From NCBI GenBank assembly GCA_037190965.1, contig JBBCKI010000072.1:47821-111820 (forward strand): DNA of 64,000 bases. Reading direction: 5' to 3'. This document shows, in pieces, positions 7,602-61,140 of this stretch. Made by a program: the position numbers and the translations under genes. The first letter of the stretch is position 1. Every line of letters starts with the position of its first letter. The notes below the pieces were generated by a model. The model was not told the origin of the DNA. It searched no databases and saw only the letters and a list, made by a program, of their open reading frames with translations. The DNA comes from Chthoniobacteraceae bacterium. Lineage in GTDB: Bacteria; Verrucomicrobiota; Verrucomicrobiia; Chthoniobacterales; Chthoniobacteraceae.

Positions 7602-8630
7602 ATGGCAAAACCCCCTTCCTCAGCCATCGGCGTTGACCTTGGCAGGCACTCGATGAAAGCAGTGCTTCTTGCGCGCAAAGGCAATGGCCGTCTCTCGCTC
7701 ACCCGCTTTGCCACGCGCGATTTGGCCGTTGAGCTCCATACCGCCGATGAACTGGCTGCCAACCTCAAGGCGTTGCTCCAGGAGCTGGGGGGGAGCGCAA
7801 AGGCCTGCGGGATCGCCATTTCTTCCTCCGACTCGTTTTTGCGCATTATCGAGCAGCCCGAGATGGAGCCGGAAACCCTGCGCGATGCACTGCGGTTCAA
7901 CAGCCAGATGCTGCTTAACCAGGATTGCAAAGATTTTGTGCTCGATTGCGACCGGATCTCCGCCGATTCGTCCGGGGGAAACAATGGGTCCTCGCGCTAT
8001 ATCGTGGGAGGCCTGCCGAGAGCGCAGGTGCAGGTGATCCATGACGCGTGCCTGAAGACGAAGACCCCGATGACGGCGCTGCAGCTCAGCCCAATGGCGG
8101 TTTTCAACGCATTCGAGTTTGCCAATGAGGAAACCTTCAATACCCAGGGGTTCGTCCTTGTCGATATCGGCCATCTCTCTTCAGAAGTAATTGTCGGGGC
8201 AAAGCGCGAGTTGATTCTGGCCCGAACACTTGGCTACGGCGGCAACCATTTTGTGGAAGAGTTGATCTGTCACGGGGCGTCGGGTCCCGAGGAGGTGGCT
8301 CAGGCGCTGGCCGAGGAGGAGGTGCTTACCATCGAGAATGCGCGGCTTTCGCTCACGGAGCTTGTCCGTTCGATCAGTTCCTCCATCGGATTCGTTGAGG
8401 CGCGGCATGAGGTGGCGATCCCGAGAGTTTTTATTTCGGGCGGGATGGCGAAGTCACCCGCGATTCTGAAGATTCTCTCCGAAGAACTGCAACTCCCGTG
8501 CGAAACATGGGACCCCTTTGCCAAATGCGAAGTCGCTGTTCCTGCGGCACGCAAGGAGGCGTTGGGAGGGCAGCTTCCGGTATTAAGCGCGGCCTGCGGG
8601 GCGGCGGCGGAAATTTTGAAAGGACGTTGA
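7602..8630 (+). CDS. pilM: Type IV pilus assembly protein PilM (actin-like)
   Basis: IGVDLG..SMKAV, LVDIG and FISGG motifs; heads a four-gene operon. Confidence 0.85.
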   Translation: MAKPPSSAIGVDLGRHSMKAVLLARKGNGRLSLTRFATRDLAVELHTADELAANLKALLQELGGSAKACGIAISSSDSFLRIIEQPEMEPETLRDALRFNSQMLLNQDCKDFVLDCDRISADSSGGNNGSSRYIVGGLPRAQVQVIHDACLKTKTPMTALQLSPMAVFNAFEFANEETFNTQGFVLVDIGHLSSEVIVGAKRELILARTLGYGGNHFVEELICHGASGPEEVAQALAEEEVLTIENARLSLTELVRSISSSIGFVEARHEVAIPRVFISGGMAKSPAILKILSEELQLPCETWDPFAKCEVAVPAARKEALGGQLPVLSAACGAAAEILKGR

Positions 8631-8639
8631 GGGGAACTC

Positions 8640-9299
8640 ATGGCGCTACATCTTAATTTTTATCACGAAATCCAGCGCGAAGCTCAGGCCCGGGCGCGGG
8701 ACCCGGTGAAACTTGCAGGGTTGGCAGGAGCGGCGCTGGCGGTCCTGCTTCTCGCCTACTATGGCTACCGGAGCTACGCCGTGAGCCGTGTGGAGGCCAA
8801 GCTCGCCTCGGTCCAGAAAGAATGGAAACGGCTCGAACCGGCGCAGGCTGAGGCCAAGAAGCGCGAGGCTGAGCTTTTCGTTCTGCAAAAGAGCAACAAG
8901 GCATTGGTCGATCGTCTTCATGGACGCCTCTATTTTGCCCCTCTGCTTGACAAGATTGCGACAGCCACGCCCCCCACGGTCCAGATCACTTCGCTTGCCG
9001 CTGATTACGCCGATCCTGAGAAACCGGCAACGGTCCTGGTTTCGGGCATCGCCGCGGGGCTCCAGCCACGGAGCGCCGCCGAGGCATTTCGTCTTGCGCT
9101 GGAGAAAGAGGTTTCAGGGCAGTATCCGAAAGCGACCGCCAGCTTCGACGCCAACTCACTGGAGGAGGCTGAGGAGAATATCGAATGGAGCGGGGAATCG
9201 CTTCACACCGCCCGTTTCAAAATTCGGCTGACGCTTGAGGGTCGTCCGCCAGCAAAAGAAGAGGCACCCCCGGCCCCCAAGAAAGCGAAAACCAAATGA
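8640..9299 (+). CDS. PilN-like protein
   Basis: LNF motif, TM helix, coiled coil, P.TVQITSL; position after pilM. Confidence 0.7.
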   Translation: MALHLNFYHEIQREAQARARDPVKLAGLAGAALAVLLLAYYGYRSYAVSRVEAKLASVQKEWKRLEPAQAEAKKREAELFVLQKSNKALVDRLHGRLYFAPLLDKIATATPPTVQITSLAADYADPEKPATVLVSGIAAGLQPRSAAEAFRLALEKEVSGQYPKATASFDANSLEEAEENIEWSGESLHTARFKIRLTLEGRPPAKEEAPPAPKKAKTK

Positions 9300-9856
9300 A
9301 TCTGACCAAGGAACAACTTCAGAAGGCCGCGCTGGGAGTGGTGCTCGTCCTTGTCGCCCTGTATGCCTATTTCAGCATGCTGTTGGGGCCGCTCGGAGCG
9401 CGGGAGAAGCGGGCGCAAAAGGCGATGGACGCCCTTGCGCCGAAGATGAAGGAAGCAAATACCCAGATTACCCGGACCCGCTCCATCGAAGCCGAAGACC
9501 CATTTGGAGCGGCGGCTGGAATCGCCCGGGAGGCAATGGCGACGCGCATCCCCGACGGGGCTGCCATCGTCTGGTTGCCGCAAAGACTCTCGGAGTTTTT
9601 CCATAGCCAAGGAATCAAGAAGATTACCTCCAAAGCGGAAGCCGAGCAGGATGATCTTAGCTTGCCGGGCTACCGCCTTTCGACCTGGCAGGTTAATATC
9701 GCCGAAGTCGAGTTTGTGCCTTTTGCCGCTGCCATCGCCGCGATGGAGAACCAGGAGGGCTTGGCACAGATCACCTCCCTGCGGATTGAGACCAATGCCG
9801 CCAACGTTCAATTCCAAAACGCCAGCCTGAAGTTCTCAACCCTGGTTAAAAAGTGA
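9296..9856 (+). CDS. PilO/GspM-like protein
   Basis: TM plus coiled coil plus ferredoxin-like tail; ATGA overlap with the upstream gene. Confidence 0.65.
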   Translation: MNLTKEQLQKAALGVVLVLVALYAYFSMLLGPLGAREKRAQKAMDALAPKMKEANTQITRTRSIEAEDPFGAAAGIAREAMATRIPDGAAIVWLPQRLSEFFHSQGIKKITSKAEAEQDDLSLPGYRLSTWQVNIAEVEFVPFAAAIAAMENQEGLAQITSLRIETNAANVQFQNASLKFSTLVKK

Positions 9857-10305
9857 AAATCCTCTCTTTTCTTTCCCTGCTGTCATTGGCTTTTGCCGTG
9901 CTTCCCGCCAGCGCTCAAACGGTTGAAGATCTTCAGATCAAAGAGCGGTCGTTTTTTACGGCGTCAACGGCCAGAAATCCGTTCTTGCCTGTCGGTTGGG
10001 CAAAGCCTGAGCCAATCGTTCCTACGGTGGGTAAGCCTGTCAACCCGACGGCCGTGGTGTCGGATGCATTCTTCAAGCCGGAGCGCTTCGTGGTGACCAG
10101 CATTTCCATCGGCGCGCTTCCGCTGGCCTTGATCAATGGGAAAACTTACGGCGAGGGCGACCTCATTCCCGTGGAGGCCGGGATCAACGTGCAGGTCTAT
10201 GCCATTCGCGACGGGGAAGTGACTTTGCGTTACCAGAGCAAAACGATCGTTTCGGCGATCCAGAGCGCGGAGGCCAAGAAGCAAAGGCCGAAGCCGAAGC
10301 ATTAA
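9853..10305 (+). CDS. PilP/GspB-like periplasmic protein
   Basis: Signal peptide, RNPF motif, ALINGKTYGEGD motif; GTGA overlap. Confidence 0.6.
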   Translation: MKILSFLSLLSLAFAVLPASAQTVEDLQIKERSFFTASTARNPFLPVGWAKPEPIVPTVGKPVNPTAVVSDAFFKPERFVVTSISIGALPLALINGKTYGEGDLIPVEAGINVQVYAIRDGEVTLRYQSKTIVSAIQSAEAKKQRPKPKH

Positions 10306-10410
10306 CGAGCGGAGCGGCCTACTTCATAAAAATCCGCCGCGACTTGCGCCGGGGGGCCAATCGCCCCTATCGTTGGGTTCCTGTCTCCCAAGCCAGATTC
10401 CAACAACGAT

Positions 10411-11745
10411 ATGTCGCCTTCTCTTGAATCTCTTTTCGACTTCACCCGGTTTCAGAGCATTTCCGCCGATGCGAATTACACCCCGCAGGTGGCGGCGTGT
10501 GCGGAATGGCTGAAAAGCCGTTTCCTTGCCATGGGGTTGGAGGCGAAGGCGTACCCGACTGCCGGGCATCCTGTGGTGCTGGCGCGCAATGTGCCGAGGG
10601 CGGATCGTCGCACAGTGCTCATCTACGGGCATTATGATGTGCAACCGGCGGATCCGCTCAATGAGTGGACGACACCTCCCTTTGAACCTCGCGTGGAGAA
10701 TGGCATGATCTATGCCCGGGGCATTGCCGACAACAAGGGGCAGATCATGGCGCACATCCTTGGTGTGGAGAAGGCGCTGGCCGAGAAGGGGGATCTCCCC
10801 GTGAACGTGATTTTTCTGGTGGAAGGCGAGGAGGAAATCGGCAGCGGGCATCTGGAAGCCTTCCTCAAGGAGCATCGTGAGGCGTTGAACCCCCATGTGA
10901 TCGTCATTTCTGACACCAGCATGGTCGCGCCCGGCGTCCCTTCGTTGGACTATGGGTTGCGGGGTGTTCTGGCGATGGAGGTTCGCCTGCATGGCGCGGC
11001 GACGGATCTGCACTCCGGGAGCTACGGCGGGATCGCGCCGAATCCCGCGATGTTGCTCGCGCGGCTTCTCGCAACGCTTCATGACGAGCAGTTCCGTGTG
11101 GCGGTGCCGGGCTTTTATGACGCGGTCATTCCCGTTCAGGATTGGGAGCGGAAGGAGTGGGCTCAACTGCCGATGAGCGGGGAGGAGGATTACAAGAATG
11201 AGATCCGTTCTCCCTCCCTTTTCGGGGAGGCGGGATACACGCCGTTGGAGCGGCTCTGGGCCCGGCCCACGGCGGAGGTCAACGGAATTGGCGGCGGATA
11301 CCAGGGGCTGGGAAGCAAAACGGTGATCCCGCGCGAGGCCTTTGCGAAGCTGACCTTCCGGCTCGTTCCCAACCAGACCCCGGAGGAGATCGAGGAGAAG
11401 GTGATCGCCCATCTCAAACGGCATTGCCCACCGGAGGTGCGGCTGGAGATCAGCCCCGGGCATGGCGGTGCACCGTTCTTGTGCGATCCGAAAGGAGCCA
11501 ACAGCCTGGCCGCGGGTCGTGCGGCAATGCGGACCTGGGGTCAGGATCTGGCACTGATCCGGGGCGGGGGTTCGATTCCGATTTTGCAGACTTTCCAGCG
11601 GATTCTCGGCGTCGATATCCTGCTTATCGGACTGGCGTGGCCGGGGTGCTGCGCGCATGCTCCCAACGAAAACTTCCCCGTGGAAAGCTTCGAGACCGGG
11701 ATCCGCTTCAATCAGGCGTTGCTGGAAGAGCTAGCCGCAGGGTAG
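10411..11745 (+). CDS. M20 family dipeptidase (ArgE/DapE-like)
   Basis: YGHYDVQP, ARGIADNKGQ, EGEEEIGS, DLHSG, HAPNE. Confidence 0.93.
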   Translation: MSPSLESLFDFTRFQSISADANYTPQVAACAEWLKSRFLAMGLEAKAYPTAGHPVVLARNVPRADRRTVLIYGHYDVQPADPLNEWTTPPFEPRVENGMIYARGIADNKGQIMAHILGVEKALAEKGDLPVNVIFLVEGEEEIGSGHLEAFLKEHREALNPHVIVISDTSMVAPGVPSLDYGLRGVLAMEVRLHGAATDLHSGSYGGIAPNPAMLLARLLATLHDEQFRVAVPGFYDAVIPVQDWERKEWAQLPMSGEEDYKNEIRSPSLFGEAGYTPLERLWARPTAEVNGIGGGYQGLGSKTVIPREAFAKLTFRLVPNQTPEEIEEKVIAHLKRHCPPEVRLEISPGHGGAPFLCDPKGANSLAAGRAAMRTWGQDLALIRGGGSIPILQTFQRILGVDILLIGLAWPGCCAHAPNENFPVESFETGIRFNQALLEELAAG

Positions 11746-11819
11746 CGAGGGCGCGGGAATTTTGCGCGGCGGGGGCAATCTCGCCGTGCGCCGCCGGGGC
11801 GGGTTCTTACGCTCGTGGC

Positions 11820-13775
11820 ATGATTAAGACTGCGTTGACGCTGACAGGGGATCAATTGCAACGGATGGCCCGCTATGTGCGCCATCGGATCGAGGGGATC
11901 GAGGCCGCCCGGAGCCATGGGTGGATTGCCGACCGCGAACGGTTCGACCGGGAGTGGAACGATGACTTTTCGCACAGGAGCCGGGAGAGTGCGGTTTTTG
12001 CGAAGTCCAACGAATCGCTGAACATGGTTGGCTCCGGGGTTGACTATATCCGCTCCCGGATCATGGAGGAGATCTTCGGGAGCAAGCCGTGGTTTTCCGT
12101 CGATTCGAAATCGCGCCGAAGCGGCGGGGCGGCGCTTTCCGATCAGGTGGCGCGGCATCTCCGCTGGAAGCTGGGTCAAGATCAGATCAACTTCGAGGGA
12201 GTGGCGGTCGATCTGATCACGCAGGCCTGCAAGATGGGGGAATGCGTGGCCAAGATTTTTTACAAGACTGACGAAGAGAGCTTCGAGCGGATTGCCTCGA
12301 TTTTGTGGGATACGGAAACCGCTTCGCCGGTACTGACCCCGGAGGGCGATTTTATTTTTGAGGAGGACGCGCATCTTTCAGGGCAGAGGAGTGGCGAGTC
12401 TGAGGCGGAATGGAGACCGGGGCAGGAGGGTTCCTCGGCGGCGCCCAAGCCGTTGCCACCCGGAACCTGCTGGAAGGAGCAGATTGTCTCGGAGCACCGG
12501 GTCCATTACACCGGGGCGAAGGCGGTGCCCATGCACTTCAAGGACTTCTATTGCCCCTTGAATGCGCCCTCGATCCACGAGGCCGACTTTGTGGCGCACA
12601 GGACTTCCATGCGTCTGTCGGATTTGTGCAGGCATCTCGGCATTTCTCCGGAGACTTTCGCTGACCGAGGGGAGGAGAACTATCTCGCGCGGGCCTTGGA
12701 GCAAATCCGACGGGCGGGCGCGCGCGCGGAGACGGGGGCGGAACAGCCGCGGGCGGGAGAAGGCGAGGAGCCGGATGCCGCCGAAGCCGATCCGGAGTTC
12801 CGGCTGGTGGAGGCTTACTTTCAATTCGACGCGCGGGACGATGGCCGCTCCTGCCGGATCTTCATGATGATGGCGTATGACTTCGATCTACCCATCTTCT
12901 GGGACTACAGCGCCAACGTGACTCCGGGCGGACGCTATCCGTTCGAAGCCGTGGTCATCAACAAGGAGCCGCATCGTTGGTACGGGAAGAGCTGGTTCAA
13001 GAAGTACGAGAAATTTCAACAGTTGATCGACAAGCTCCTCAATCAGATCCTTTATCGAAATGAGCTCGCGGCCAATCCCGTCAAATTCCGTCGCAAGGAG
13101 GCGGTGGTGCAATGGCAGGATGATCAACCGTTCGAGATCGGACCGGACAAGGTGTTCGATCTCAACGACGGCTACACCGCTGACGACGCCTTGCAGACGG
13201 CGAAGATTCCCGAGTTGGACGAGCAGACGAAATATCTCCTTGAAACCGTGGTGTCCAGTTGGCGGACCCGGTCGGGAGTGACGACGGCGACACAGGGGAT
13301 GTTCGGCGGTCTCCCCTCGGAGCATACCGCCACGGGGGTGGCGCAGATCGTGGAAAGCGGCACCACGATCTTCAAACCACAGGTCCTGGACATCAAGCGG
13401 GGTTTGGAGGCCGTGCTCAGGCAGTTGGTGACGCATCAGTATACCTGCCAAACGACGGACGAGACGTTCACGTATATGGAGGGGAATGAACGTGTCCAGG
13501 GGACGCTCTCCTGTGAAAGCGTGCGCAATCTGGATTTCAATATTGAACTGACTTTGACGCGCGCTCGCCAGATCCGACGGCTTGAAGCCGCGCGGGTGGG
13601 GGCGGAGTTCTTCAGTAAATTCCTGGCCGTTCCCGACGAGTTCAAGCCGGTGGCGGCTCCGCTTTTCGCGACGATTTACAAGAACCTCGAAATCGACAAC
13701 GCCGACGACTATTTCCGGCAGGCTGTCGAGATTGCCCGGGAGCGGGACAATGAAACGAAGGAGGCACGCGCGTGA
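11820..13775 (+). CDS. Phage portal-like protein (podovirus N4/SU10/P22-type), orphan
   Basis: 651 aa with ordered portal-like motifs: IFGSKPWFSV, GECVAKIFY, DFYCPLNAPSIHEADFVAHR, LVEAYFQFDARDDG, YPF..PHRWYGKS..Q..LLNQ..ANP, SGVT..QG..TATGV. Confidence 0.8.
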   Translation: MIKTALTLTGDQLQRMARYVRHRIEGIEAARSHGWIADRERFDREWNDDFSHRSRESAVFAKSNESLNMVGSGVDYIRSRIMEEIFGSKPWFSVDSKSRRSGGAALSDQVARHLRWKLGQDQINFEGVAVDLITQACKMGECVAKIFYKTDEESFERIASILWDTETASPVLTPEGDFIFEEDAHLSGQRSGESEAEWRPGQEGSSAAPKPLPPGTCWKEQIVSEHRVHYTGAKAVPMHFKDFYCPLNAPSIHEADFVAHRTSMRLSDLCRHLGISPETFADRGEENYLARALEQIRRAGARAETGAEQPRAGEGEEPDAAEADPEFRLVEAYFQFDARDDGRSCRIFMMMAYDFDLPIFWDYSANVTPGGRYPFEAVVINKEPHRWYGKSWFKKYEKFQQLIDKLLNQILYRNELAANPVKFRRKEAVVQWQDDQPFEIGPDKVFDLNDGYTADDALQTAKIPELDEQTKYLLETVVSSWRTRSGVTTATQGMFGGLPSEHTATGVAQIVESGTTIFKPQVLDIKRGLEAVLRQLVTHQYTCQTTDETFTYMEGNERVQGTLSCESVRNLDFNIELTLTRARQIRRLEAARVGAEFFSKFLAVPDEFKPVAAPLFATIYKNLEIDNADDYFRQAVEIARERDNETKEARA

Positions 13776-14041
13776 CGCCGGAACAGAAGATGGAGCGGGT
13801 GGCCGAGATCGCTCAGGAATTGACGCTGCTCAATCGTCTGCCCGCGGAAGGGGCGGCGATTCTGGACCGCGAGCTGGAACGGCTCGTGGCGTTTCATACC
13901 GAGAAATGCTGCGATTGCAGGCTCCCGCCCGAGCAAAGCGCGATGCACCGGGAGGCCCGTGCCCTCGCGCGCGGTCTGCTCGGGTTTTTCGACAAGCGGA
14001 AGACCGCGCTCAAGGACGAGTTGGGCCAGTTGCGGCGATAG
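13772..14041 (+). CDS. Small helical protein translationally coupled to the portal gene
   Basis: GTGA start/stop overlap; 89 aa, helical pattern. Confidence 0.75.
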   Translation: MTPEQKMERVAEIAQELTLLNRLPAEGAAILDRELERLVAFHTEKCCDCRLPPEQSAMHREARALARGLLGFFDKRKTALKDELGQLRR

Positions 14042-14098
14042 GTACAGTAACCACTCCGGTTGGAACAGCCGCTTCGGCAGCAGGCTGCGTTGTCAACA

Positions 14099-14128
14099 TC
14101 AAGCTGTTATCTACGGATAGCAGCTTGA
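14099..14128 (+). terminator. Strong hairpin between convergent genes (terminator-like)
   Basis: TCAAGCTGTTATC-TACG-GATAGCAGCTTGA: 13-bp stem with cUACGg loop; weak U tract. Confidence 0.55.
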
Positions 14129-14188
14129 GTTTCCTCCTTGCCTGGGAAAAGAATCCGGCGGTCGACGCGACTCAGCGTTGACTGGATA

Positions 14189-16096
14189 CTAGATCCCGTT
14201 CCTCCTGCGGCGGAGCAGGAACGCTGCAAGAGCCGCGCTTCCGGTCAAAGCCCACGTCGTCGGTTCAGGCACCGCAGCCAGGATCGTATAACCGCCAAGA
14301 TTATGGTAGCCGGTGTAGTTATACGCGTCGCCTTCGTTCAGGAAATAGAGCGCTTCGAAGCCGCCGGTGTCGGTCGTGACCCAGGCATCGCCATCCCAAA
14401 CCTGGAAAACTCCTTGACCAAGGAGAGTTGTCAGGTCGGAGCGGCGATCGCCATCCCACGCGAAAAAGCCGCCATCGAGGCGCAGGAGATTATTGGTGCC
14501 GCCATTCTGATTCATAACAAGGTTGCCGCCGAGGGAAAACAGCGCCTTGTCCGCGATCGTAATGGTATTGTCACTCCCGAAATTTCCGAAAGTCAGGTCC
14601 CCGGAGTTATTCCAGATGGAGCCCTCTCCGGTCACAACAACAGTATTATTCTTTGCATTGGCATTCGATTCACCGATGCCGGTGCTGCCGCTCTCCAAAA
14701 GGGCTCCACTTTCAACCTTCAGGCTTTGCCAGCTGGAGAAGCTTCCGACACTCAGGACCGTCGTGCTCCAGGAGGTTCCCTCTCCTTTTACCGTGACCGA
14801 GTGCCCGGTTCCCGAATAACCGACCGTTCCGGTTCCGCTCGTCACGGTAGCTCCGTTCTGGATGGTGATGGAGTTGGATGTCCCGGACCGTGCGCCAAGC
14901 TCACCGGAAAGAGTCACCTGAGTCCCCGGTCCCGTGATGAGAATCGAGTTGTTCACTGCCCTAGAGCCTCCTCCAGCACGAATAATGGCTCCGTCTACCG
15001 TAGCACCGTCTTGAATTGTCAATGTGTTGTTGGGCCCGGCCTCTCCCACTGTTACCGATCCGGTGAAGGAGGTGCCAGTGCCGGTAATGAGCATGGAGTT
15101 TGAAGAACCAAGCGTACCGCTGGCAATGAGGGTGGCGACGCTTGTGGAACTCACGACGACCGCCCCATCCTGGATGGTCAGGGAATTTCCTGTGCCGTGG
15201 CTACCGACCCGGAATCGACCGGTCGTGGTGATGCTGGAACCGGATCCACTCACCACGATCGAATTGCTGCTCCCCCTGACGCCGTCATTCCCTCCACCAA
15301 CGTAAATATCACTCGCGGAAGTCCAGGAACCGCCATCTTCGATAGTCAAGGAATTATTGTTCCCGAAAGCGCCGATTTGATTGGCACCGTAATTGGTAGT
15401 TACCAAGGTAGAGCCGGAGCCTGAAATGAGGGCCGTATTGTTCTTCCCTCGACCGGCGGTATTGCTGTTGCCCCATCCAACCACGAAAGACGAGAAAGTC
15501 ACTGAGGCTCCATCCAGAATCTGCAACGAGTTCGAATCGCCCTCCTGCCCAATACTGGCATAAGTACCCGATAGAACCGTGCCGGATCCCTTCACCGTCA
15601 CCGAATTACCGTTCGAACCCAGATTGTAACCGGCTGAAAGCCCTATATTGGAAGACACCAGCCCGAATCCGAAATACCCCCCATCCTCAACCGTCAAGGA
15701 GTTATTGCTCCCATTGTAGCCTATTAAAACGTTGCCGTTCCCCGCAAAACGGGAACCCTCCCCGGTAACCTTGAGCGAGTTTCCCCCGCTGGTCTGGTTA
15801 TATCCGAGGCTCGCCAAACTGTCTCCCACCACGGCGGAGCCGTTGCGAATAATCAATTCATTGTAGGATGTGGTGCTTCCCGTTGTCATTGCGCCGGAAA
15901 AAGTTTTGGGAAACGCTTCCGTATCTCCAATGATATATTGTGCCTTGTCTACCTCTGTGCCTCCTGAATTCATAAGCTCTGGCACTGAGTTATCCACGCT
16001 GACAATTCCTGCATGGGCTGGAGTCATAATCGAAGACACCGCCAGGGAACTGAGAGCGAGGGTTACAGCAAAGGCACGAGAGGAAATTGAATTCAT
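14189..16096 (-). CDS. PEP-CTERM surface protein with G.GS beta-repeat units
   Basis: Signal peptide; repeats such as NSLTIEDGG and V.G.GS; C-terminal VPEPTT-TM-RRRR. Confidence 0.92.
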   Translation of the reverse strand: MNSISSRAFAVTLALSSLAVSSIMTPAHAGIVSVDNSVPELMNSGGTEVDKAQYIIGDTEAFPKTFSGAMTTGSTTSYNELIIRNGSAVVGDSLASLGYNQTSGGNSLKVTGEGSRFAGNGNVLIGYNGSNNSLTVEDGGYFGFGLVSSNIGLSAGYNLGSNGNSVTVKGSGTVLSGTYASIGQEGDSNSLQILDGASVTFSSFVVGWGNSNTAGRGKNNTALISGSGSTLVTTNYGANQIGAFGNNNSLTIEDGGSWTSASDIYVGGGNDGVRGSSNSIVVSGSGSSITTTGRFRVGSHGTGNSLTIQDGAVVVSSTSVATLIASGTLGSSNSMLITGTGTSFTGSVTVGEAGPNNTLTIQDGATVDGAIIRAGGGSRAVNNSILITGPGTQVTLSGELGARSGTSNSITIQNGATVTSGTGTVGYSGTGHSVTVKGEGTSWSTTVLSVGSFSSWQSLKVESGALLESGSTGIGESNANAKNNTVVVTGEGSIWNNSGDLTFGNFGSDNTITIADKALFSLGGNLVMNQNGGTNNLLRLDGGFFAWDGDRRSDLTTLLGQGVFQVWDGDAWVTTDTGGFEALYFLNEGDAYNYTGYHNLGGYTILAAVPEPTTWALTGSAALAAFLLRRRRNGI

Positions 16097-16352
16097 AGTC
16101 ACTGAGAAACTCTCAGATTTTAGAAAACTGCGCCGCGTGGGGAAGAAAATTCCGGCATGCCTCTGGGGATGGTGTATCGAAGCATTTGCAAGTTCTTGAT
16201 ATCGAGCATCTTGCATTCGAGGTGGCAAGAATACGTAATATTACTTAGTTGGCTTGGATGGTCTGCTCTGCCGCCTGGCGGACGGTGAATACCTCCGGAT
16301 CAGGTTGTGTCCACGATTTAGTTGCCTTTTGGCAATTCGTGACTTGGACGAC

Positions 16353-18299
16353 TTACACCGTCTTGGCCGCAAGCGCTTCCCATTCCGCCGTGAGGCGTTC
16401 GAGGTCCTCGGCGATGGAGAGGAGATCGCGATTGAGTTGCATGGCGTTCCCGCCGGGGGCATAGCTCTCGGGTTTCTCCAGTTCGGCGGTCAACTCCCGT
16501 TGGCGGCCTTCGTGGTGAAGGATCTGCATCTCCAGTGCCTGCACACGCTTCTCGTGCTCGCGCTTGGCGGCGGCGACGGCTTTGCGCTGTTCGGCTTCCG
16601 CGCGTTTCTGTTGCCGGGTTTCGCGCATCGAGAGGCCCGGGGCGTCGGTCTCCTCAGTTTTCGCCGCGCTCGGTTTCTCGTCCGGCTGGGCGTTGGAAAG
16701 TTTCTCCCCGGCGGTCAGGGCCGAGCGCGCGGATCCGGCGCGCGTTTTGTCGAGGTAATACTGGTAGTCGCCCGCATAGGGGGTCAGCCGCCCTGCGCTG
16801 ATGTGGAGCACGGTCCGCGCGATCGACCGGATGAAATGGACGTCGTGGCTGATGAAGATCAGCGTTCCCTCATACTGCTGGAGCGCGCCGATGAGCGCGT
16901 CGATGGAGCCGACATCGAGGTGCGTGGTCGGCTCGTCCATGAGGAGGAGGTTTGGGGGATCGAGCAGCAGCTTCACGAGCGCGAGGCGCGTTTTCTCTCC
17001 GCCGCTCAGGACGGCCACCGGCTTGAAGACATCGTCGCCCCGGAAGAGGAAGGAGCCGAGCACCGTGCGGGCGGTCTGTTCGGAGGGCGGGTTGGCCATC
17101 TCCTGCACGCTTTCCAAAACGGTATGCCGGGGGTCGAGCATTTCGACCCGGTACTGCGAGAAGTAGCCGACTTTTACATTATGCCCCAGCGTTCGTTCTC
17201 CGTTCTGTAGGGCAAGCGTTCCGGCGAGTAGTTTGAGAAGCGTCGATTTGCCCGCGCCGTTGGGGCCGACGAGGACCGTTCGCTGGCCGCGTTCCGCCTC
17301 GAAGTTCAATCCTTTGTAGACGGTCAGGTCGCCATAGGCGTGGTCGACGTCTTTGAGTGTAATGGCGCGAACGCCGCTGCGGGGCGGCTGGGGGAAGCTG
17401 AAGTGGACGGTCTTCTGCGCGGCAAGGGGAGCCTCGATCTTCTCCATCCGGTCGATCTGCTTGAGCTTGCTCTGCGCCTGGGAGGCCTTGCTCGCCTTGG
17501 CGCGAAAGCGGTCGGCAAACCGTTGGAGCGTCTCGATCTCTTTCTGCTGGTTTTTGTACGCGGCGAGATGCTGCTCCTCGCGGGCGGCTTTTTCGGCGAC
17601 GTACTTGTCCCAGTTGCCCCGGTAGCGGTTGAGCTTGCGGTGCGCGATCTCGACAATTGAACCGACGAGCGCGTTGAGGAACTCGCGGTCGTGGGAAATC
17701 ATGAGGATCGCCCCCGGATAGCTTGCGAGGTACTCCTGAAACCAGACGAGCGATTCGAGGTCGAGGTGGTTGGTCGGTTCGTCGAGCAGCAGGAGGTCGG
17801 GCTCCTGCACCAGGAGCCGCGCTAGATGTGCCCGCATGATCCAGCCGCCGCTCAACGCACGGGCGGGGCGGTCGAAATCCGAGGTGCGAAAGGCGAGGCC
17901 TGCAAGAATCCGCTTGGCCTTCGGCTCCAGTTGCCAGCCGCCGTGCTCATCGAACACGGCGAGCGCTTCGTGGTGTTCGGGCGAGTCATCGGGCGTCGTT
18001 TTCAGGGTGCGTTGCGCCTTGGCCAGTGCCGGGTGAATGGCCATGGCCAGTTCCAGCACCGTTTCTTCACCGACCGGGGCGCTTTCCTGCGGCAGAAAGC
18101 CAAGGGTGGCGGCGCGTTCCATGGAGACGCGCCCCTCGTCCGGCGAGGCTTCTCCCAGGATCAACGAGAAGAGGGTCGATTTGCCCGCGCCGTTGGGACC
18201 GACAAGGCCCACCCTGTCGCCACGGTTCACCTGAAGGGAGGCATTCTCGAAAAGAACGCGCCCACCGAAACTCTTGCTGACCTGAGAAATTGTAAGCAT
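16353..18299 (-). CDS. ABC-F family ATP-binding protein
   Basis: Two GPNGAGKST Walker A motifs, LSGG signatures, DEPTNHLD and DEPTTHLD, no TM, C-terminal coiled coil. Confidence 0.95.
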   Translation of the reverse strand: MLTISQVSKSFGGRVLFENASLQVNRGDRVGLVGPNGAGKSTLFSLILGEASPDEGRVSMERAATLGFLPQESAPVGEETVLELAMAIHPALAKAQRTLKTTPDDSPEHHEALAVFDEHGGWQLEPKAKRILAGLAFRTSDFDRPARALSGGWIMRAHLARLLVQEPDLLLLDEPTNHLDLESLVWFQEYLASYPGAILMISHDREFLNALVGSIVEIAHRKLNRYRGNWDKYVAEKAAREEQHLAAYKNQQKEIETLQRFADRFRAKASKASQAQSKLKQIDRMEKIEAPLAAQKTVHFSFPQPPRSGVRAITLKDVDHAYGDLTVYKGLNFEAERGQRTVLVGPNGAGKSTLLKLLAGTLALQNGERTLGHNVKVGYFSQYRVEMLDPRHTVLESVQEMANPPSEQTARTVLGSFLFRGDDVFKPVAVLSGGEKTRLALVKLLLDPPNLLLMDEPTTHLDVGSIDALIGALQQYEGTLIFISHDVHFIRSIARTVLHISAGRLTPYAGDYQYYLDKTRAGSARSALTAGEKLSNAQPDEKPSAAKTEETDAPGLSMRETRQQKRAEAEQRKAVAAAKREHEKRVQALEMQILHHEGRQRELTAELEKPESYAPGGNAMQLNRDLLSIAEDLERLTAEWEALAAKTV

Positions 18300-20037: not shown

Positions 20038-20551
20038 GCGTTTTTCTCTATAAATGATACCGCAAAAATGATAAACCATTAATGAGAGGGGAAGCGATTG
20101 CTGCCAAGCTCACGAAACCGGGGGTGGAATAGGGATTCAGGGGCAAAATTCGTGAAAAATGGGGATTTTTTTGGAATGCGTAAAAAGGGAGGTCGCCACA
20201 GGTTTGGGGTGAGCTTCACTGGGATCGCAGGAACGTCCGGCGGATAAAAACCCGTGAGGAGGCGAGCGATTGAGGCCGTAAACGGTGGAATGACGAAAAA
20301 ATTTTGAGAGAATTGTCAGTTCTTTCGGGTTATCTCCCGTAATAAATGGCTCTCTGCCAGAAAGAAGGAAAAGTTCGAGGTTCATCTTTTCCCGGGTAGG
20401 CGTATGGGCAGTTTTCGTTGACGCGGATAAGGGAAGATTGTTAGAACGCGTCCCGGCTTTTATCGAAAAAGATAAAAGCAAGCACTTGAAACTTGGGAAC
20501 CCTCGCCGTCGCAGAGGAAAAGCACGGCTTAAAAAATCCGAATATCTGCAC

Positions 20552-23500
20552 ATGAACAACGGAACACGCCTCTTTAAACAAACCGCCCTACAGGCAAGGG
20601 CCCGCTCTGCGGGTCGCGCGTTGGGTAGTACACTTTCTGCCGCGGTGCTTGCCTCCGCAATGATGGCGGGAAGCTCGGCCTTTGCCGCCGACATCGTCGT
20701 TGATAATCCTGCCAGCCCGTTGGTTCTGACCAATTCAGAACAGATCAACATCGAGAACGTTTATCTTCAAAACGGTGCTGAAATTCAGGGAAACGGTACC
20801 GCCGATATTCTCGCCAGCGGAACCTTCGCGCTGGAGAGCGGCAGCGTTCTTCAGGTAGGTCTCGGTGGAACTGCCGGGCTTGAGAAAACGACAGCAGGAT
20901 GGGTTACGCTGACAGGGTCGAATTCCTATACCGGCACCACGGAAGTCTTTGGAGGGACCTTGCAGATCGGTGACGGGGTTACCGGCTCGCTCAATAGCGC
21001 CAGCGCGGTCAATATCCGCATCAACGCGCGCGTTGAACTGAACCTCGCTTCAGGCAGCACTTTTGCCAACAACGTTTACATCGAGAAAGTAGGCGGGGAC
21101 TTCGGGAATTTCGTGGTGAATTCCTCGGGAACCACGACGATTTCCGGAGTAATCTCCGGCGGCGGCGGCTTCTTTCAGTTGAACTCTGACGGTCACACGA
21201 TCCTGACCGGCGAGAATACCTCCACTGGCGCGTATGGTGTCGAGGGGGGGACATTGCAGATTGGCGACGGAACCACAGGCTCGATCAGCTCCGCTGCCTC
21301 TGTTTATATTCATGACTCTGCTCAGCTCCTGATCAACCTCGCGGACAACGGGGTTTTCGCTAATGACATCGGCAACGGTGGCTTGCTTCAGACGATCGCC
21401 AACGGGACCAATACTCTCGCGGGAGCGATTTCCGGCACGGGCGCATTTATACAGTCCGGGTCCGGTACCACGATCCTCACCGGGACAAACACCTACACGG
21501 GATATACCGCAGTTAGTTCCGGCACGCTCCAGATCGGTGACGGCGTCAGCGGGTCGATCAATGATTTGAGCGACGTCTATGTGGAAGAGGCCGGCTCGCT
21601 GGTTCTCCACCTGCGTAACGACGGCATCTTCGGTAGCGACGTTTACAATGATGGCAAGGTCTTCACCTCTGCCTCCGGCACCAACACGGTCTCCGGCGTC
21701 ATCAGCGGTACGGGTTCTCTGACCCAGAACGGCAATGGAGTTACAATCCTCGACAACCAGAACACTTACAGCGGTGCCACCTCGGTGCTGAGCGGCACGT
21801 TGAAGGCAGGCGCTGATTACGCCATCTCCTACGAATCCGCGGTTTCGGTTGACGCAGGAAGCACCCTCGACTTGCGGTATACCGACCAGGAGATCGGCTC
21901 CCTGTCCGACGGCGAGAACGGCGGCGGGACCGTCCGGATCCGCCGTGGCGAACTCAGGACCGGCTACGACAACACCGACACCACCTTCAGCGGTTCCATC
22001 ACCGGCTGGCGCGGTCGGTTGGTCAAGACCGGCAATGGTACCTTTACGCTTACCGGGGCCAATACCTACACCGGCAGCACGGTTGTTGCCTCCGGCACGT
22101 TGCAGATCGGCGACGGCGTCAGTGGTTCGATCAGCGCCCAGTCCCGCGTCTACATCGACAGTGACGCCAGCTTGGTGCTGAATCTCGCTGACGGCAGCGA
22201 GTTCGAAAACCGCATCCGTAACCGGGGCTCGATCTTCTCGATTGCCGACGGAACGACGACGATCTCCGGGCGCATCAGCCGCGGCGGCGACTTCTACCAG
22301 GCCGGTACCGGAACGACGATCCTCACCGCCAACAACACCTACTGGGGGAATACCTACGTTCAGAGTGGCACTCTTCAGATTGGTGATGGATCGACTTACG
22401 GGTCCGGCATCTCCAATTCGGAATACGTTCAGGTTGACGCGAATGCAACGCTCGCCATCAAGCTTGCTCATAACGACGAGTTCAACAACGATGTGACCAA
22501 CAACGGCACAGTCCGTTCCATCGTTGGCGAAGTGGAAATCGTTCCAGATGACTGGGTTCCCGCGGTCAATAACATCTCGGGCCAGATTGTTGGCACGGGT
22601 GGATTCATCAAAGAAGGCAAAGGAACGACGGTCTTTACCAACGCATACAATGATGATCCCTCGTATGATACCGCGCATTACTACGCAGGGGATACCGAGA
22701 TCCGTGAAGGGACGTTGAAGACGGACGGGTTGTGGAACCTCAGCATCTATTCCAAGCATAACGTTTCAGAAGACGCCGTGCTGGATCTGAACGGGTATAA
22801 TCAGAATATCCGGGCGCTGACTGGCGCCGGTCGTGTGGAGAATATCGATGGCGATCTCTACATCGGGTATTTGTATGACTTCGACGAAGAGGACTGGGTG
22901 ATCGGGGAGTCGAGCGATTATGGTGTGTTCGACGGCGTCCTGGCCGGATCGGGAAATATCTATAAAGGCGGTTACGGCCTCTGGGCTCTCAACGGGGAGA
23001 ACACCTTCGACGGTTACCTGGAGAATAATGCGGGGGCGATCGCGCTCAATGGCTCCATTGAGGCGCAGGTTGACAACAACGCCTTCTTCTTCGGAAACGG
23101 CTATGTCGGTGGTGGCTTCCACAACCATGGAGAACTGATTGCGCTCGATTACGAGACCGGTAATCCGGGAACTCTTACCATCGGTGAAAACTTCGAACAA
23201 TTCGACGACTCCATCTACTACGTTGCGGTCAAGTCGGCGAAGAACCACAGCAAGGTCGAAGTGCTTGGAGAAGCTCATCTCGACGGCACTGTCGTTCTGA
23301 CTTCGTTTTCCAAATACAAGCCCAAGCGCGACGACAAGTTGACGATCCTCACCGCTGACGATGGCGTCGAAGGTAAGTTCGACAAGCTCGAGAGCCGGCT
23401 GCAGAAAACGATGCTCAAGCCGAAGCTCGTCTATAAAGACGACAAGGTTATCGTCGAATTCCAGCAGCGGAAGTTCGCGAGCCTCTCGGGCCTCACGCCG

Positions 23501-24697
23501 AACCAGAAGGCAGTCGCTCGCGCCCTCGACAAGGACTCGAACCGGAAGAGCCTCAACAAGCTGTTCGACAAGCTTAACGACCTCGATTTCGACGACGTCC
23601 CCGGCGTTCTGGCAAAACTCTCGCCTGAGCAGTTCGCGGCGATCTTCAACATCGGGTTTGCAACCTCTCAGTTGCAGTTCACCAACATCGAGCGCCGCCT
23701 CGACGACGTCCGCCGTGGTAAGGCTGGCTTCAGCACGAACGGCCTCGCGTTGAGCAACTCGCATGGCACGCTCAATTACGACGGCATGCCGATCGTCAAC
23801 GAGAAGAACGGCCTGACCCTCGCGGGCTGGGACGGCAAGAGCGTCGTCGGCAAGCAGACGGTGGCCCCGGTCATCTCTGAGAGCCGCTGGAGCTTCTTCG
23901 CAACCGGCAGCGGCGAATGGGCGGACGTGGAATCCACCCGCAATGCTCGCGGTTCCGACTTCCGTACGGGCGGCGTGAACATCGGTGCGGACTACCGCGT
24001 CAACGAGAACCTCGTTCTCGGTATCACGGCGGGTTACACGAATACGACCTCGGACCTGTTTGACGGCGGCAAGATCGACGTCAACAGCGGACGCGGCGCG
24101 GTCTACGGCACCTGGTTCAACGATGGGTTCTACGTGAACGCCCTCGCGGGCGGCGCGTACAACTCGTACGACACCAAGCGCTCGACCTTCGGCGGCAAGG
24201 CTCATGCGAGCCCCAACGGCGGTGAGTTCGACGCGTTGCTGGGTGGTGGTTACGACTTCTGCGTCGGCGGGTTGACCGTCGGGCCGATCGCTTCGTTGCA
24301 GTACACCTACCTCGGGCTGAGCAGCTTCAATGAATCGGGTTCCGATGCACCGCTGCACTTCCGCTCGCAGCATCAGGATTCGTTGAAATCCACCCTCGGT
24401 CTGAAGGCGGCTTACACCTTCAATATCGGGAGTGTGGCGATTACGCCGGAAGTTCGCGCTCAGTGGGTGCACGAGTACCTCGACAGCACCGCTGCGGTTG
24501 AATCCAGCTTCGCTTCGGGTGGCAGCACGTTCACGGTGAACGGCCCGAACATCGGTCGCAATGGGGTCCTGATCGACGCGGGTGTTTCCGCCCAGATCAC
24601 CCAGGGCGTCTCGGTGTTCGCTTACTACACCGGTGATTACGGCCGCACGAATTACACTTCCAATAGTGTGAACGGCGGTTTCCGGATCAACTTCTAA
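20552..24697 (+). CDS. Autotransporter with PATR beta-strand repeats and C-terminal beta-barrel
   Basis: Repeated G.GT.ILTG.NTY.G.T.V..GTLQIGDG units; GLTPNQKAVA linker; barrel ending in FRINF. Confidence 0.95.
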   Translation: MNNGTRLFKQTALQARARSAGRALGSTLSAAVLASAMMAGSSAFAADIVVDNPASPLVLTNSEQINIENVYLQNGAEIQGNGTADILASGTFALESGSVLQVGLGGTAGLEKTTAGWVTLTGSNSYTGTTEVFGGTLQIGDGVTGSLNSASAVNIRINARVELNLASGSTFANNVYIEKVGGDFGNFVVNSSGTTTISGVISGGGGFFQLNSDGHTILTGENTSTGAYGVEGGTLQIGDGTTGSISSAASVYIHDSAQLLINLADNGVFANDIGNGGLLQTIANGTNTLAGAISGTGAFIQSGSGTTILTGTNTYTGYTAVSSGTLQIGDGVSGSINDLSDVYVEEAGSLVLHLRNDGIFGSDVYNDGKVFTSASGTNTVSGVISGTGSLTQNGNGVTILDNQNTYSGATSVLSGTLKAGADYAISYESAVSVDAGSTLDLRYTDQEIGSLSDGENGGGTVRIRRGELRTGYDNTDTTFSGSITGWRGRLVKTGNGTFTLTGANTYTGSTVVASGTLQIGDGVSGSISAQSRVYIDSDASLVLNLADGSEFENRIRNRGSIFSIADGTTTISGRISRGGDFYQAGTGTTILTANNTYWGNTYVQSGTLQIGDGSTYGSGISNSEYVQVDANATLAIKLAHNDEFNNDVTNNGTVRSIVGEVEIVPDDWVPAVNNISGQIVGTGGFIKEGKGTTVFTNAYNDDPSYDTAHYYAGDTEIREGTLKTDGLWNLSIYSKHNVSEDAVLDLNGYNQNIRALTGAGRVENIDGDLYIGYLYDFDEEDWVIGESSDYGVFDGVLAGSGNIYKGGYGLWALNGENTFDGYLENNAGAIALNGSIEAQVDNNAFFFGNGYVGGGFHNHGELIALDYETGNPGTLTIGENFEQFDDSIYYVAVKSAKNHSKVEVLGEAHLDGTVVLTSFSKYKPKRDDKLTILTADDGVEGKFDKLESRLQKTMLKPKLVYKDDKVIVEFQQRKFASLSGLTPNQKAVARALDKDSNRKSLNKLFDKLNDLDFDDVPGVLAKLSPEQFAAIFNIGFATSQLQFTNIERRLDDVRRGKAGFSTNGLALSNSHGTLNYDGMPIVNEKNGLTLAGWDGKSVVGKQTVAPVISESRWSFFATGSGEWADVESTRNARGSDFRTGGVNIGADYRVNENLVLGITAGYTNTTSDLFDGGKIDVNSGRGAVYGTWFNDGFYVNALAGGAYNSYDTKRSTFGGKAHASPNGGEFDALLGGGYDFCVGGLTVGPIASLQYTYLGLSSFNESGSDAPLHFRSQHQDSLKSTLGLKAAYTFNIGSVAITPEVRAQWVHEYLDSTAAVESSFASGGSTFTVNGPNIGRNGVLIDAGVSAQITQGVSVFAYYTGDYGRTNYTSNSVNGGFRINF

Positions 24698-27488: not shown

Positions 27489-28010
27489 GTGAATGTCCTC
27501 TCAAAACTGTTCGATTTAGGAGCATGGTATTTCTCTCCCGGGCTCTCCATTCCGGAGGGAGTGACCCCGGTATCGGGTTTTAACGCGCAACGTTATCTTG
27601 GCCGGTGGTACGAAATCGCCCGGTTCGATCATTTTTTCGAAACGGGTTTGAGTCGCGTGATGGCGGATTATTCGATGCGCGAGGACGGATCCATCGATGT
27701 GTTTAATCAGGGTTTCGACGCCCGTAGGTCGAAATGGCAGGAGGCGCGGGGGATTGCGCGCTTCATGAGCACCCCGGACATCGCGAGCCTGAAGGTCTCG
27801 TTCTTTTGGCCCATCTGGGGCGCTTATCACGTCTTTGCCCTCGACCATGCGGACTACCGGTGGGCCATGGTTGCCGGGGCAACCCACTCCTATCTCTGGA
27901 TCTTGAGCCGGGAGAAAACCATGGAGCCTGACCTGCTGGAGTCTTTGCTCCAGCAGGCTCGGGCTGCGGGGGTCGATACCGGCAAACTGATGCTCGTCGC
28001 TCAGGAGTGA
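27489..28010 (+). CDS. blc: Bacterial lipocalin (Blc-like)
   Basis: RYLGRWYEIAR, LKVSFF.P, YLWILSR. Confidence 0.88.
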   Translation: MNVLSKLFDLGAWYFSPGLSIPEGVTPVSGFNAQRYLGRWYEIARFDHFFETGLSRVMADYSMREDGSIDVFNQGFDARRSKWQEARGIARFMSTPDIASLKVSFFWPIWGAYHVFALDHADYRWAMVAGATHSYLWILSREKTMEPDLLESLLQQARAAGVDTGKLMLVAQE

Positions 28011-30976: not shown

Positions 30977-31105
30977 AAACCTTCCTTCCAAGGGTGCCCG
31001 ATGTCCGCGATCCCGGGCGGGAAGTTAGGTTGTTTGTTTGTCGCAAACCGAGTAGGCTTTGCCCTTTACGCGGACCGTTGGTGTCTCGAATCACCGGGTT
31101 GGATC
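30977..31105 (-). promoter_or_regulatory. Structured 5' leader RNA (candidate cis-regulatory motif)
   Basis: Stems GTCCGCG/CGCGGAC, CCCGGTG/CATCGGG and GGC-AAA-GCC, directly upstream of the GGAAGG Shine-Dalgarno and ATG. Confidence 0.5.
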
Positions 31106-61054: not shown

Positions 61055-61140
61055 TTGACCTTGTATTTTTTCGGTGTCACGATTTCCGCTGGTTGGTCAA
61101 AAAAGTTTTCACTTCGGAAACTTACTTGGTACTGCTGATT

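Follow-up and report, generated by a model that had tools for sequence, protein, structure and literature searches.

A podovirus-type portal gene among host genes of a Chthoniobacteraceae bacterium and its probable place in a dispersed, gene transfer agent-like system

We analyzed a 64-kb stretch of DNA (hereafter the window) from a Chthoniobacteraceae bacterium, which is part of contig C72 of a 4.2-Mb genome assembly (G000; other G numbers denote genomes of relatives). The window contains an intact gene for a 651-aa phage portal protein that is followed by a small gene for an 89-aa protein and surrounded by host genes. Comparison with related genomes indicates that this portal is probably one part of a vertically inherited head and DNA-packaging system, which derives from a podovirus, resembles gene transfer agents (GTAs), and is dispersed over at least three loci. 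The large terminase (TerL) and the major capsid protein (MCP) of the same set are encoded on two other contigs of the assembly, and the three genes occur together in three genera of the family (g1, g8, and g17) that hold them at high identity.

The portal, terminase, and head genes

The assignment of the 651-aa protein as a podovirus-type portal is confirmed by its sequence family and by its predicted fold. The open reading frame (ORF) translates without an internal stop and matches the Pfam family SU10_portal (PF23899; E = 6.5e-26, 91.3 bits against a cut-off of 30, residues 74-515) as well as PHROG 1216, 'portal protein' (E = 3.9e-21). The homologs at all eight loci of relatives match PF23899 too, with E-values between 1.3e-22 and 6e-28. 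An AlphaFold2 (AF2) model computed from 34 homologs (pLDDT 76.0, pTM 0.69) has its best Foldseek matches in the PDB among podovirus portals, namely those of Pa223 (2.2e-15), N4 (1.2e-14), and SU10 (7z44, 2.6e-14), with further matches to the portals of A4, DEV, VP1, PaP3, and T7. The Foldseek probability for the listed podovirus portals is 1.00 at TM-scores of 0.41-0.53, and 108 matches have E<=0.001; the portal fold (wing, stem, clip, and crown) was called on the model as a whole. The window portal shares family and fold with the SU10, N4, and Pa223 portals, whereas its identity to them in structural alignments is 11-15% and its gene sits among host genes rather than phage genes. A sequence profile search of the PDB with the 34-homolog alignment gave no matches. 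Since the public collection's call of the gene is 636 aa long, the true start may be an ATG located 15 codons downstream. A longer, TTG-started frame from position 11424 was rejected, as it overlaps the M20 peptidase gene and is not needed. The portal is present as a single copy in the assembly.

The terminase was recognized through the relatives. In three of them (G001, G002, and G005), the gene immediately preceding the portal encodes a protein of some 600 aa that matches PHROG 2, 'terminase large subunit' (E-values from 4e-12 to 1.3e-9), and the ortholog of this protein in G000 lies on contig C56. The motifs KPRQKGSST, LHVSE, TTANG, CDTATG, and HDDDV are invariant in all nine aligned sequences; we take them to represent Walker A, a Walker B-like motif, the coupling motif, and the acidic residues of the nuclease. 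As for the portal, a PDB sequence profile search with the TerL alignment gave no matches. A conserved ORF of about 99 aa, convergent to TerL (C56:3241-3519, minus strand), is also found in G001, G002, and G005 at 48-60% identity. It has no family match and contains a GIWVIW...VIEVGES.NVR stretch reminiscent of GIY-YIG nucleases, and it is kept beside TerL in G000 although the portal lies elsewhere.

The head genes of G000 were located on contig C66 through homology to a divergent second gene set on contig C7 of G002. They form a module of four genes encoding a scaffold-like coiled-coil protein, MCP, a 150-aa protein, and a 310-aa adaptor-like protein, and their order is kept in all seven genomes read as well as in the G002 second set. 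The MCP (486 aa) matches PHROG 334 (E = 3.3e-25) and Pfam Phage_capsid_3 (1.2e-14), with a further match to NCBIfam N4-gp56 that is below the cut-off (8e-5). The adaptor-like label comes from the G002 second-set homolog of the 310-aa protein, which has a weak SU10-adaptor match, also below the cut-off (E = 0.011). No match was obtained in G000 for the capsid and adaptor families PF25209, PF24175, and PF17236, and the API480 capsid protein reached only E = 0.36. Another capsid family, PF05065, was discarded as a lead, having matched only an unrelated prophage on contig C62 (8000-27999). This prophage is apparently complete and of the myovirus type (TerL PHROG 15, 1.5e-252), with a lambda-type portal, a protease-capsid fusion, neck, baseplate, tail fibre, late activator, and replication genes.

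Distribution, inheritance, and selection

Of 41 genomes of relatives, counting G000, an identical set of eight is matched by each of the portal, TerL, and MCP queries, and none of the three was found in the 16 of these genomes that belong to other families of the order. A search of 151 genomes of the family gave the same picture (holder counts exclude G000): the portal (60-78% identity) and MCP (80-93%) are present in 5/5 genomes of g1, 10/10 of g8, and 1/1 of g17, and TerL (69-82%) in 5/5, 9/10, and 1/1, respectively. Outside the three genera only sporadic, remote portal matches were observed (19-35% identity, 6 genomes), as expected of ordinary phages.

In G000 the portal, TerL, and MCP occupy three loci on three contigs. 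The scattering is real rather than an effect of assembly, since in the single-contig genome G161 the MCP, portal, and TerL genes lie far apart, at 0.70, 1.26, and 2.25 Mb, respectively (spacing of 0.56 and 0.99 Mb). TerL adjoins the portal in only three of eight genomes, and the portal is flanked by different host genes in each genome, including PtsI and ABC-F, NDK and PEP-CTERM, a pseudouridine synthase and an Fe-S assembly protein, OpcA and RecD2-ExoVII-RecA, or LysR; only G004 shares with G000 the ABC-F and DUF4034 genes downstream of the portal. Type IV pilus genes occur at two of the G000 loci: a PilM-like gene and three small genes precede the M20 peptidase gene on the portal side (window 7602-10305), and PilB/PilT-like ATPase genes adjoin TerL (C56:3320-6037). 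The TerL gene of G003 likewise lies beside PilB/PilT, whereas this neighbourhood is absent at the loci of the other genomes.

FastTree gene trees were built for each of the three genes, with the G002 second copy as the outgroup root. They agree with each other in the groupings (G000,G004), (G001,G002), and (G012,G021), and they set G005 apart. For the portal and TerL, the group (G000,G004) also takes in G003, which is missing from the MCP tree, as only a partial copy was available. The main copy of G002 groups with that of G001 and not with the second copy of its own genome. The gene trees are largely congruent with that of the host marker MnmE (30 genomes, omitting G021, whose MnmE is partial), where six of the seven holders form one clade without non-holders; this clade is given without support values. 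The identity ranking of relatives to G000 is also alike for MnmE and the portal. Mostly vertical inheritance and co-diversification with the hosts, as expected of a GTA, are thus indicated, on one host marker only.

The portal ORF is intact in all 17 genomes of the three genera (G000 and 16 others); an apparent TGA inside the G002 match is the natural stop, past which the alignment extends by 9 bases. The ratio of nonsynonymous to synonymous substitution rates (dN/dS), calculated by NG86, is 0.088-0.273 for the portal in 20 of the 21 pairs of seven aligned copies (the G001 copy was left out, and one pair has no computable dS) and 0.10-0.14 for TerL. For host genes of the same genome pairs the values range from 0.05 to 0.16 (ABC-F 0.14, PilT-like 0.155, PilB-like 0.06, AroC 0.05). 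As rough figures, the portal values are within the host-gene range and well below 1.

The original prediction, made from the window sequence, had proposed as its first alternative that the portal and its partner are kept by selection within a scattered verrucomicrobial capsid or GTA-like system, and as far as the sequences go, this proposal is supported. The portal fold that it anticipated is found in the AF2 model, the isolated TerL and MCP genes that it suggested looking for elsewhere in the genome were located on C56 and C66, and the low dN/dS and the congruence of trees agree with its expectations. It had also named three ways in which it could fail. The first was the lack of a portal fold, which the AF2 model contradicts. 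The second was a decaying prophage relic, with homologs confined to complete prophages and missing from close relatives and with dN/dS near 1; the high-identity homologs in fact lie among host genes and not in complete prophages, and they are present in all close relatives searched. The third was a misassembly; in run X1, possibly the source sample, Logan contigs span both junctions (10000-13482 and 13459-16500). Run X2 provided short DNA contig pieces only, and no RNA data set was listed for the stretch.

Shared upstream architecture, the partner gene, and the window surroundings

The portal and head loci have an upstream region of similar layout (Table 1). At all eight high-identity portal loci, the consensus GRRAAWTYTKRCG is followed after 17-20 nt by CGTGCG and, about 17 nt further, by a TAcGnT hexamer located 5-9 nt before the ATG. 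In all seven genomes read, these two boxes also precede the scaffold gene, where an A-A/G-G-G-T-type hexamer lies after them at about 9 nt from the start; the second box reads CGTGCG or CTTGCGG and is conserved in position in the portal and scaffold upstream regions. TerL has a variant of this architecture, GGGAAA(T/A)..GaCGC, then GGATCGC, then TAgcCT 6-7 nt before the ATG, and TAnnnT-type hexamers 5-9 nt before the start are common to the portal loci and five TerL loci. MCP upstream regions contain A-rich leaders and no box. The G002 second set carries a different, perhaps related promoter pair, CGACTTGCC ... ATAGACG. Box 1 may be an activator site or a part of the promoter, and box 2 is a candidate -35 element; the position of the hexamer suggests a putative -10 element of a leaderless or near-leaderless transcript.

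A scan of the region for the canonical sigma-70 consensus found no promoter, and a sigma-70/terminator scan of 11500-14400 was uninformative. A loose regular expression for the two boxes has 23 matches in G000 against 2 in the reversed sequence, most of them inside genes. Inspection by eye showed the G-rich GGGAA prefix of the orthologous loci only at the C72 portal and the C66 scaffold gene, and no further regulon member could be named from this genome-wide scan. A similar prefix was seen at a match on another contig (C29:168507).

The 89-aa gene is coupled to the portal, its GTG start overlapping the portal TGA by 4 nt (GTGA). NTGA start/stop overlaps are present in five further loci, and GGAGG-type runs, such as the Shine-Dalgarno-like site within the 3' end of the window portal gene, occur at the equivalent place in most orthologous loci compared. 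The gene directly follows the portal in all seven loci of relatives that extend beyond the portal stop, including the divergent second copy of G002 (locus L012 begins about 30 bases past the portal end and so cannot show it). The protein is 64-79% identical among the domesticated copies and 42% identical to the G002 second copy, and its dN/dS by NG86 is 0.11-0.18. Invariant residues include R9, D32, E36, H42, E44, C46, C47, D48, H59, and F72-F73, and the AF2 model consists of four helices (pLDDT 95.6).

The partner has no family in Pfam, PHROG, or NCBIfam and no relative among the viral contigs searched. Its fold has no match at E<=0.001 in the PDB or BFVD, the weak BFVD matches including a few N4-like phage proteins (E ~0.6-0.9), and the best ESM Atlas score, 0.79, is under the lead threshold. 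A complex prediction of the portal with the 89-aa protein scored 0.00 against a mark of 0.32, which is evidence neither way. From its coupling to the portal, its co-conservation, and the H-x3-CC-x11-H pattern, we would guess, with low confidence, that this small protein most likely acts as an accessory at the portal vertex or in assembly and perhaps binds metal through His and Cys.

The surroundings of the pair are as the original prediction had described them. The intact 651-aa ORF and the 89-aa gene joined to it by the GTGA overlap lie 74 bp after an M20 peptidase gene and before a PEP-CTERM-type gene, though the match of the latter is weak; an ABC-F gene lies beyond it. The GC content was expected to be host-like, and that of 12001-14000 is 0.602, within the window range of 0.549-0.657. 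The absence of other phage genes from the 64 kb likewise held in Pfam scans of the 47 window ORFs besides the portal pair (29 + 18), which identified host-type families only and no terminase, capsid, tail, or integrase family. The contiguous block of replication, integration, head, tail, and lysis genes that characterizes an ordinary (pro)phage is absent from the window. The remaining window genes include two large autotransporter/PATR-repeat proteins (20438-24697 and 61093-63999) and a 996-aa ankyrin-repeat protein (28001-30991).

Table 1. Locations of the portal gene, its neighbours and upstream elements, and the other loci of the set
Feature	Location	Strand	Basis or remarks
Portal protein gene, SU10/N4-type, 651 aa	window 11820..13775	+	Pfam, PHROG, AF2/Foldseek
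89-aa partner gene, coupled to portal by GTGA overlap	window 13772..14041	+	Direct reading, conservation, AF2
Shine-Dalgarno-like AAGGAGG for the 89-aa gene	window 13758..13764	+	Within portal gene 3' end; direct reading
Box 1 (GGGAATTTTGCG)	window 11755..11766	+	~54-65 nt before ATG; consensus GRRAAWTYTKRCG
Box 2 (CGTGCG), candidate -35	window 11785..11790	+	18 nt after box 1, 17 nt before -10-like hexamer
-10-like hexamer TACGCT	window 11808..11813	+	6 nt before ATG
Promoter-like box GGGAAATTTKRCG			
M20 peptidase gene	window 10411..11745		Pfam Peptidase_M20, 1.2e-29; ends 74 bp before portal
PEP-CTERM-type gene, convergent	window 14189..16228	-	Weak PEP-CTERM match, E 8.8e-4, 19.7 bits against cut-off 20.7
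Large terminase (TerL)	G000:C56:1417-3222		Ortholog of protein upstream of relatives' portals
Head module of four genes: scaffold-like, MCP, 150-aa, 310-aa adaptor-like	G000:C66, ~16.1-20.3 kb		Homology to G002:C7

Origin, alternative explanations, and significance

The closest virus-labelled relative found is the 58-kb IMG/VR contig IMGVR_UViG_3300044635_001982, which encodes homologs of the portal (34% identity), MCP (37%), and the 310-aa protein (29%). They span about 11.5 kb and are arranged as portal ... scaffold-like, MCP, one further gene, and the 310-aa homolog. As judged from the sequences, this contig shows the contiguous phage arrangement from which the set dispersed in G000 derives. 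Motifs read by eye identify an SNF2-type helicase in the gene that precedes its portal. Small genes follow the portal of the contig, but none has significant similarity to the 89-aa protein; the gene directly after the portal gave a probability of 15.7% in hhalign. A single-sequence pattern scan of IMG/VR with the portal returned nothing and an alignment-based scan two loci, while tblastn against 50,697 phage records identified two Paenibacillus phage portals only (26% identity over 29% of the query).

The second set of G002 occupies a single stretch of about 50 kb (C7, ~95000-151453). It includes an exonuclease/RecT, TerL (65%) with a small terminase subunit (TerS), the head module (MCP 77%), an endolysin-like gene, and the portal (51-53%) followed by the small gene, a 117-aa gene, and a tail-fibre-like gene. 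Host-type genes (pilin-like, PEP-CTERM, glycosidase-like, LamG, and ceramidase-like) lie in between, which makes the status of the set as a prophage uncertain; it may be a prophage, a degraded prophage, or a second domesticated set. Queries from this set match in G000 only TerL, the portal with the small gene, the four head genes, and non-conserved genes of contig C51, and tblastn at E<=0.1 found no counterpart in G000 to its TerS-like gene (PHROG 51, 7e-13). The G000 genes at C51:6698-10129 and C34:33400-35258, which have homologs in this second set, are strain-specific. The C51 run of small genes ends in an endolysin-like gene (PHROG 9589, 1.3e-9), and it looks like a phage remnant and not a part of the core.

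If the dispersed set works as a GTA-like system, its loci would be switched on together through the upstream architecture shared by the portal and the head module, with its variant at TerL. By analogy with the families concerned, twelve portal subunits would then seed a procapsid of scaffold and capsid protein, and the terminase, whose ATPase and nuclease motifs are invariant, would dock on the portal and pump DNA in. With distances of 0.5-1 Mb between the genes, a particle presumably could not carry the whole gene set, and the packaged DNA would therefore be mostly host DNA, as in GTAs; joint packaging of the set in one particle appears implausible given a dispersal of at least 0.5 Mb. The GTA criteria applied here are those given in PMC9662315, and the distribution of the set over multiple host loci amounts to the full endogenization named there.

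Several observations weigh against this interpretation. Searches by tblastn and hidden Markov models (HMMs) revealed no gene for a tail, for lysis, for a small terminase, or for a regulator whose phyletic pattern is that of the set. The C51 module was considered as a fourth locus and rejected, since its 263-aa gene gave a strong match only in G000; of the module genes, the rejection concerns this one, and its lack of conservation in other holders is also the reason why C51 and C34 look like a phage remnant. The Walker B-like motif of TerL reads SE, with Ser in place of Asp, and not DE. In G012 and G021, which represent the genera g8 and g17, the 310-aa gene aligns only over the first ~60 and last ~80 residues, its middle domain being missing. 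In two g8 genomes TerL is absent or split: it was not found in G156, a genome that is 90% complete, and in G157 it is in two adjacent pieces (C127:20602-22328, residues 27-413 and 418-601), owing to either a frameshift or a sequencing error. Moreover, the single-gene MnmE tree does not place G005 in the holder clade, saturation of dS (0.94-2.3) leaves the dN/dS values rough, and the holder genomes are kin, so that co-occurrence counts are not independent events.

The competing view that the portal pair is the uneroded leftover of an integrated podovirus with no function for the host is largely refuted and in our judgment very improbable. Phages of this lineage do visit the genus, as seen from the related and fuller set on one 50-kb stretch of G002, and G000 itself carries strain-specific remnants on C51 and C34. 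Nonetheless, a relic would hardly leave a portal intact in 17 genomes of three genera at 60-78% identity, with dN/dS in the range of host genes, a conserved promoter, housekeeping flanks without an integrase in the window, and three congruent gene trees that place the G002 second copy as outgroup, not as source. The lack of visible delivery genes bears on two other explanations. The set might produce tail-less capsids that need outside delivery, either with tails borrowed from a resident or infecting phage, in the manner of capsid-forming phage satellites, or with released DNA taken up by neighbours through type IV pili and competence proteins. Such a reading would explain why no tail gene is found in G000 among the homologs derived from the G002 second set; a docking surface for tails may persist, given the weak SU10-adaptor match (E 0.011) of the homolog of the 310-aa protein, the unrelated complete myovirus-type prophage is present on C62, and type IV pilus genes lie beside both G000 loci and the G003 TerL. 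We consider it unlikely, as the pilus neighbourhood is not conserved in other genomes, satellites, being mobile islands that carry integrases, differ from the fixed and dispersed genes seen here, and tail genes may exist that have diverged beyond the reach of the tblastn and HMM searches.

The same lack of a delivery apparatus, together with a His/Cys partner of 89 aa to which no function could be assigned, could also point to exaptation for a role other than transfer, such as a compartment (DNA-containing or empty), an anti-phage decoy or interference system, or a portal serving as a DNA channel. This explanation is quite unlikely, and somewhat more so than outside delivery: the full triad is kept together (TerL with invariant motifs, portal, and capsid with scaffold), whereas a role as a channel or a shell needs less. 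In particular, the channel, which was the second alternative of the original prediction, is less likely because the terminase and capsid genes travel with the portal. The explanation that we prefer thus remains a vertically inherited, dispersed GTA-like system. A bolder version of it, which we regard as speculative and rather doubtful, would have the whole Chthoniobacteraceae clade make tail-less, podovirus-derived capsids that package chromosomal DNA, with their genes behind one promoter box, the 89-aa protein as a new portal-associated factor, and the DNA passed on via type IV pili and competence uptake or via borrowed tails. If true, the clade would exchange genes by a route unlike that of any GTA described so far.

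Capsid-forming phage-inducible chromosomal islands (cf-PICIs) also encode capsid, portal, and terminase without a tail; they are compact mobile islands with integrases, in contrast to the genes fixed in whole genera here. The GTA of Rhodobacter capsulatus (RcGTA) and other GTAs are described in PMC9662315 as likewise consisting of phage-derived head and packaging genes that are multi-locus, vertically inherited, fixed in clades, under purifying selection, and not transferable as a unit; three independently exapted groups with an established genetic basis are counted there. The set described here differs from RcGTA in its host phylum, Verrucomicrobiota, in that no tail, lysis, or regulator genes were found, and in that its putative particle proteins of caudoviricete derivation (the portal, TerL, and MCP match phage families) are known as gene sequences. 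Its core head genes are dispersed and its ancestor would be an N4/SU10-like podovirus, whereas the head genes of RcGTA reportedly lie in one cluster and stem from a siphovirus-like ancestor. To our knowledge, no established GTA group descends from an N4/SU10-like podovirus. In a full-text literature search, judged partly by title and abstract, no paper connected Chthoniobacter or Verrucomicrobiota with GTAs or with domesticated portal and terminase genes.

Taken together, the genes appear to form an independently domesticated, multi-locus, and apparently tail-less GTA-like system. For genome annotation this warns against taking a single portal, terminase, or capsid gene in these genomes for the debris of a prophage, and the three gene sets, the shared promoter box, and the new 89-aa portal partner offer handles for its study. 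If the system works, it would represent an independent domestication in Verrucomicrobiota, a major phylum of soil and freshwater, and its fully dispersed core head genes and lack of a visible tail would, if true, widen the view of where and how capsid-mediated gene exchange can arise.

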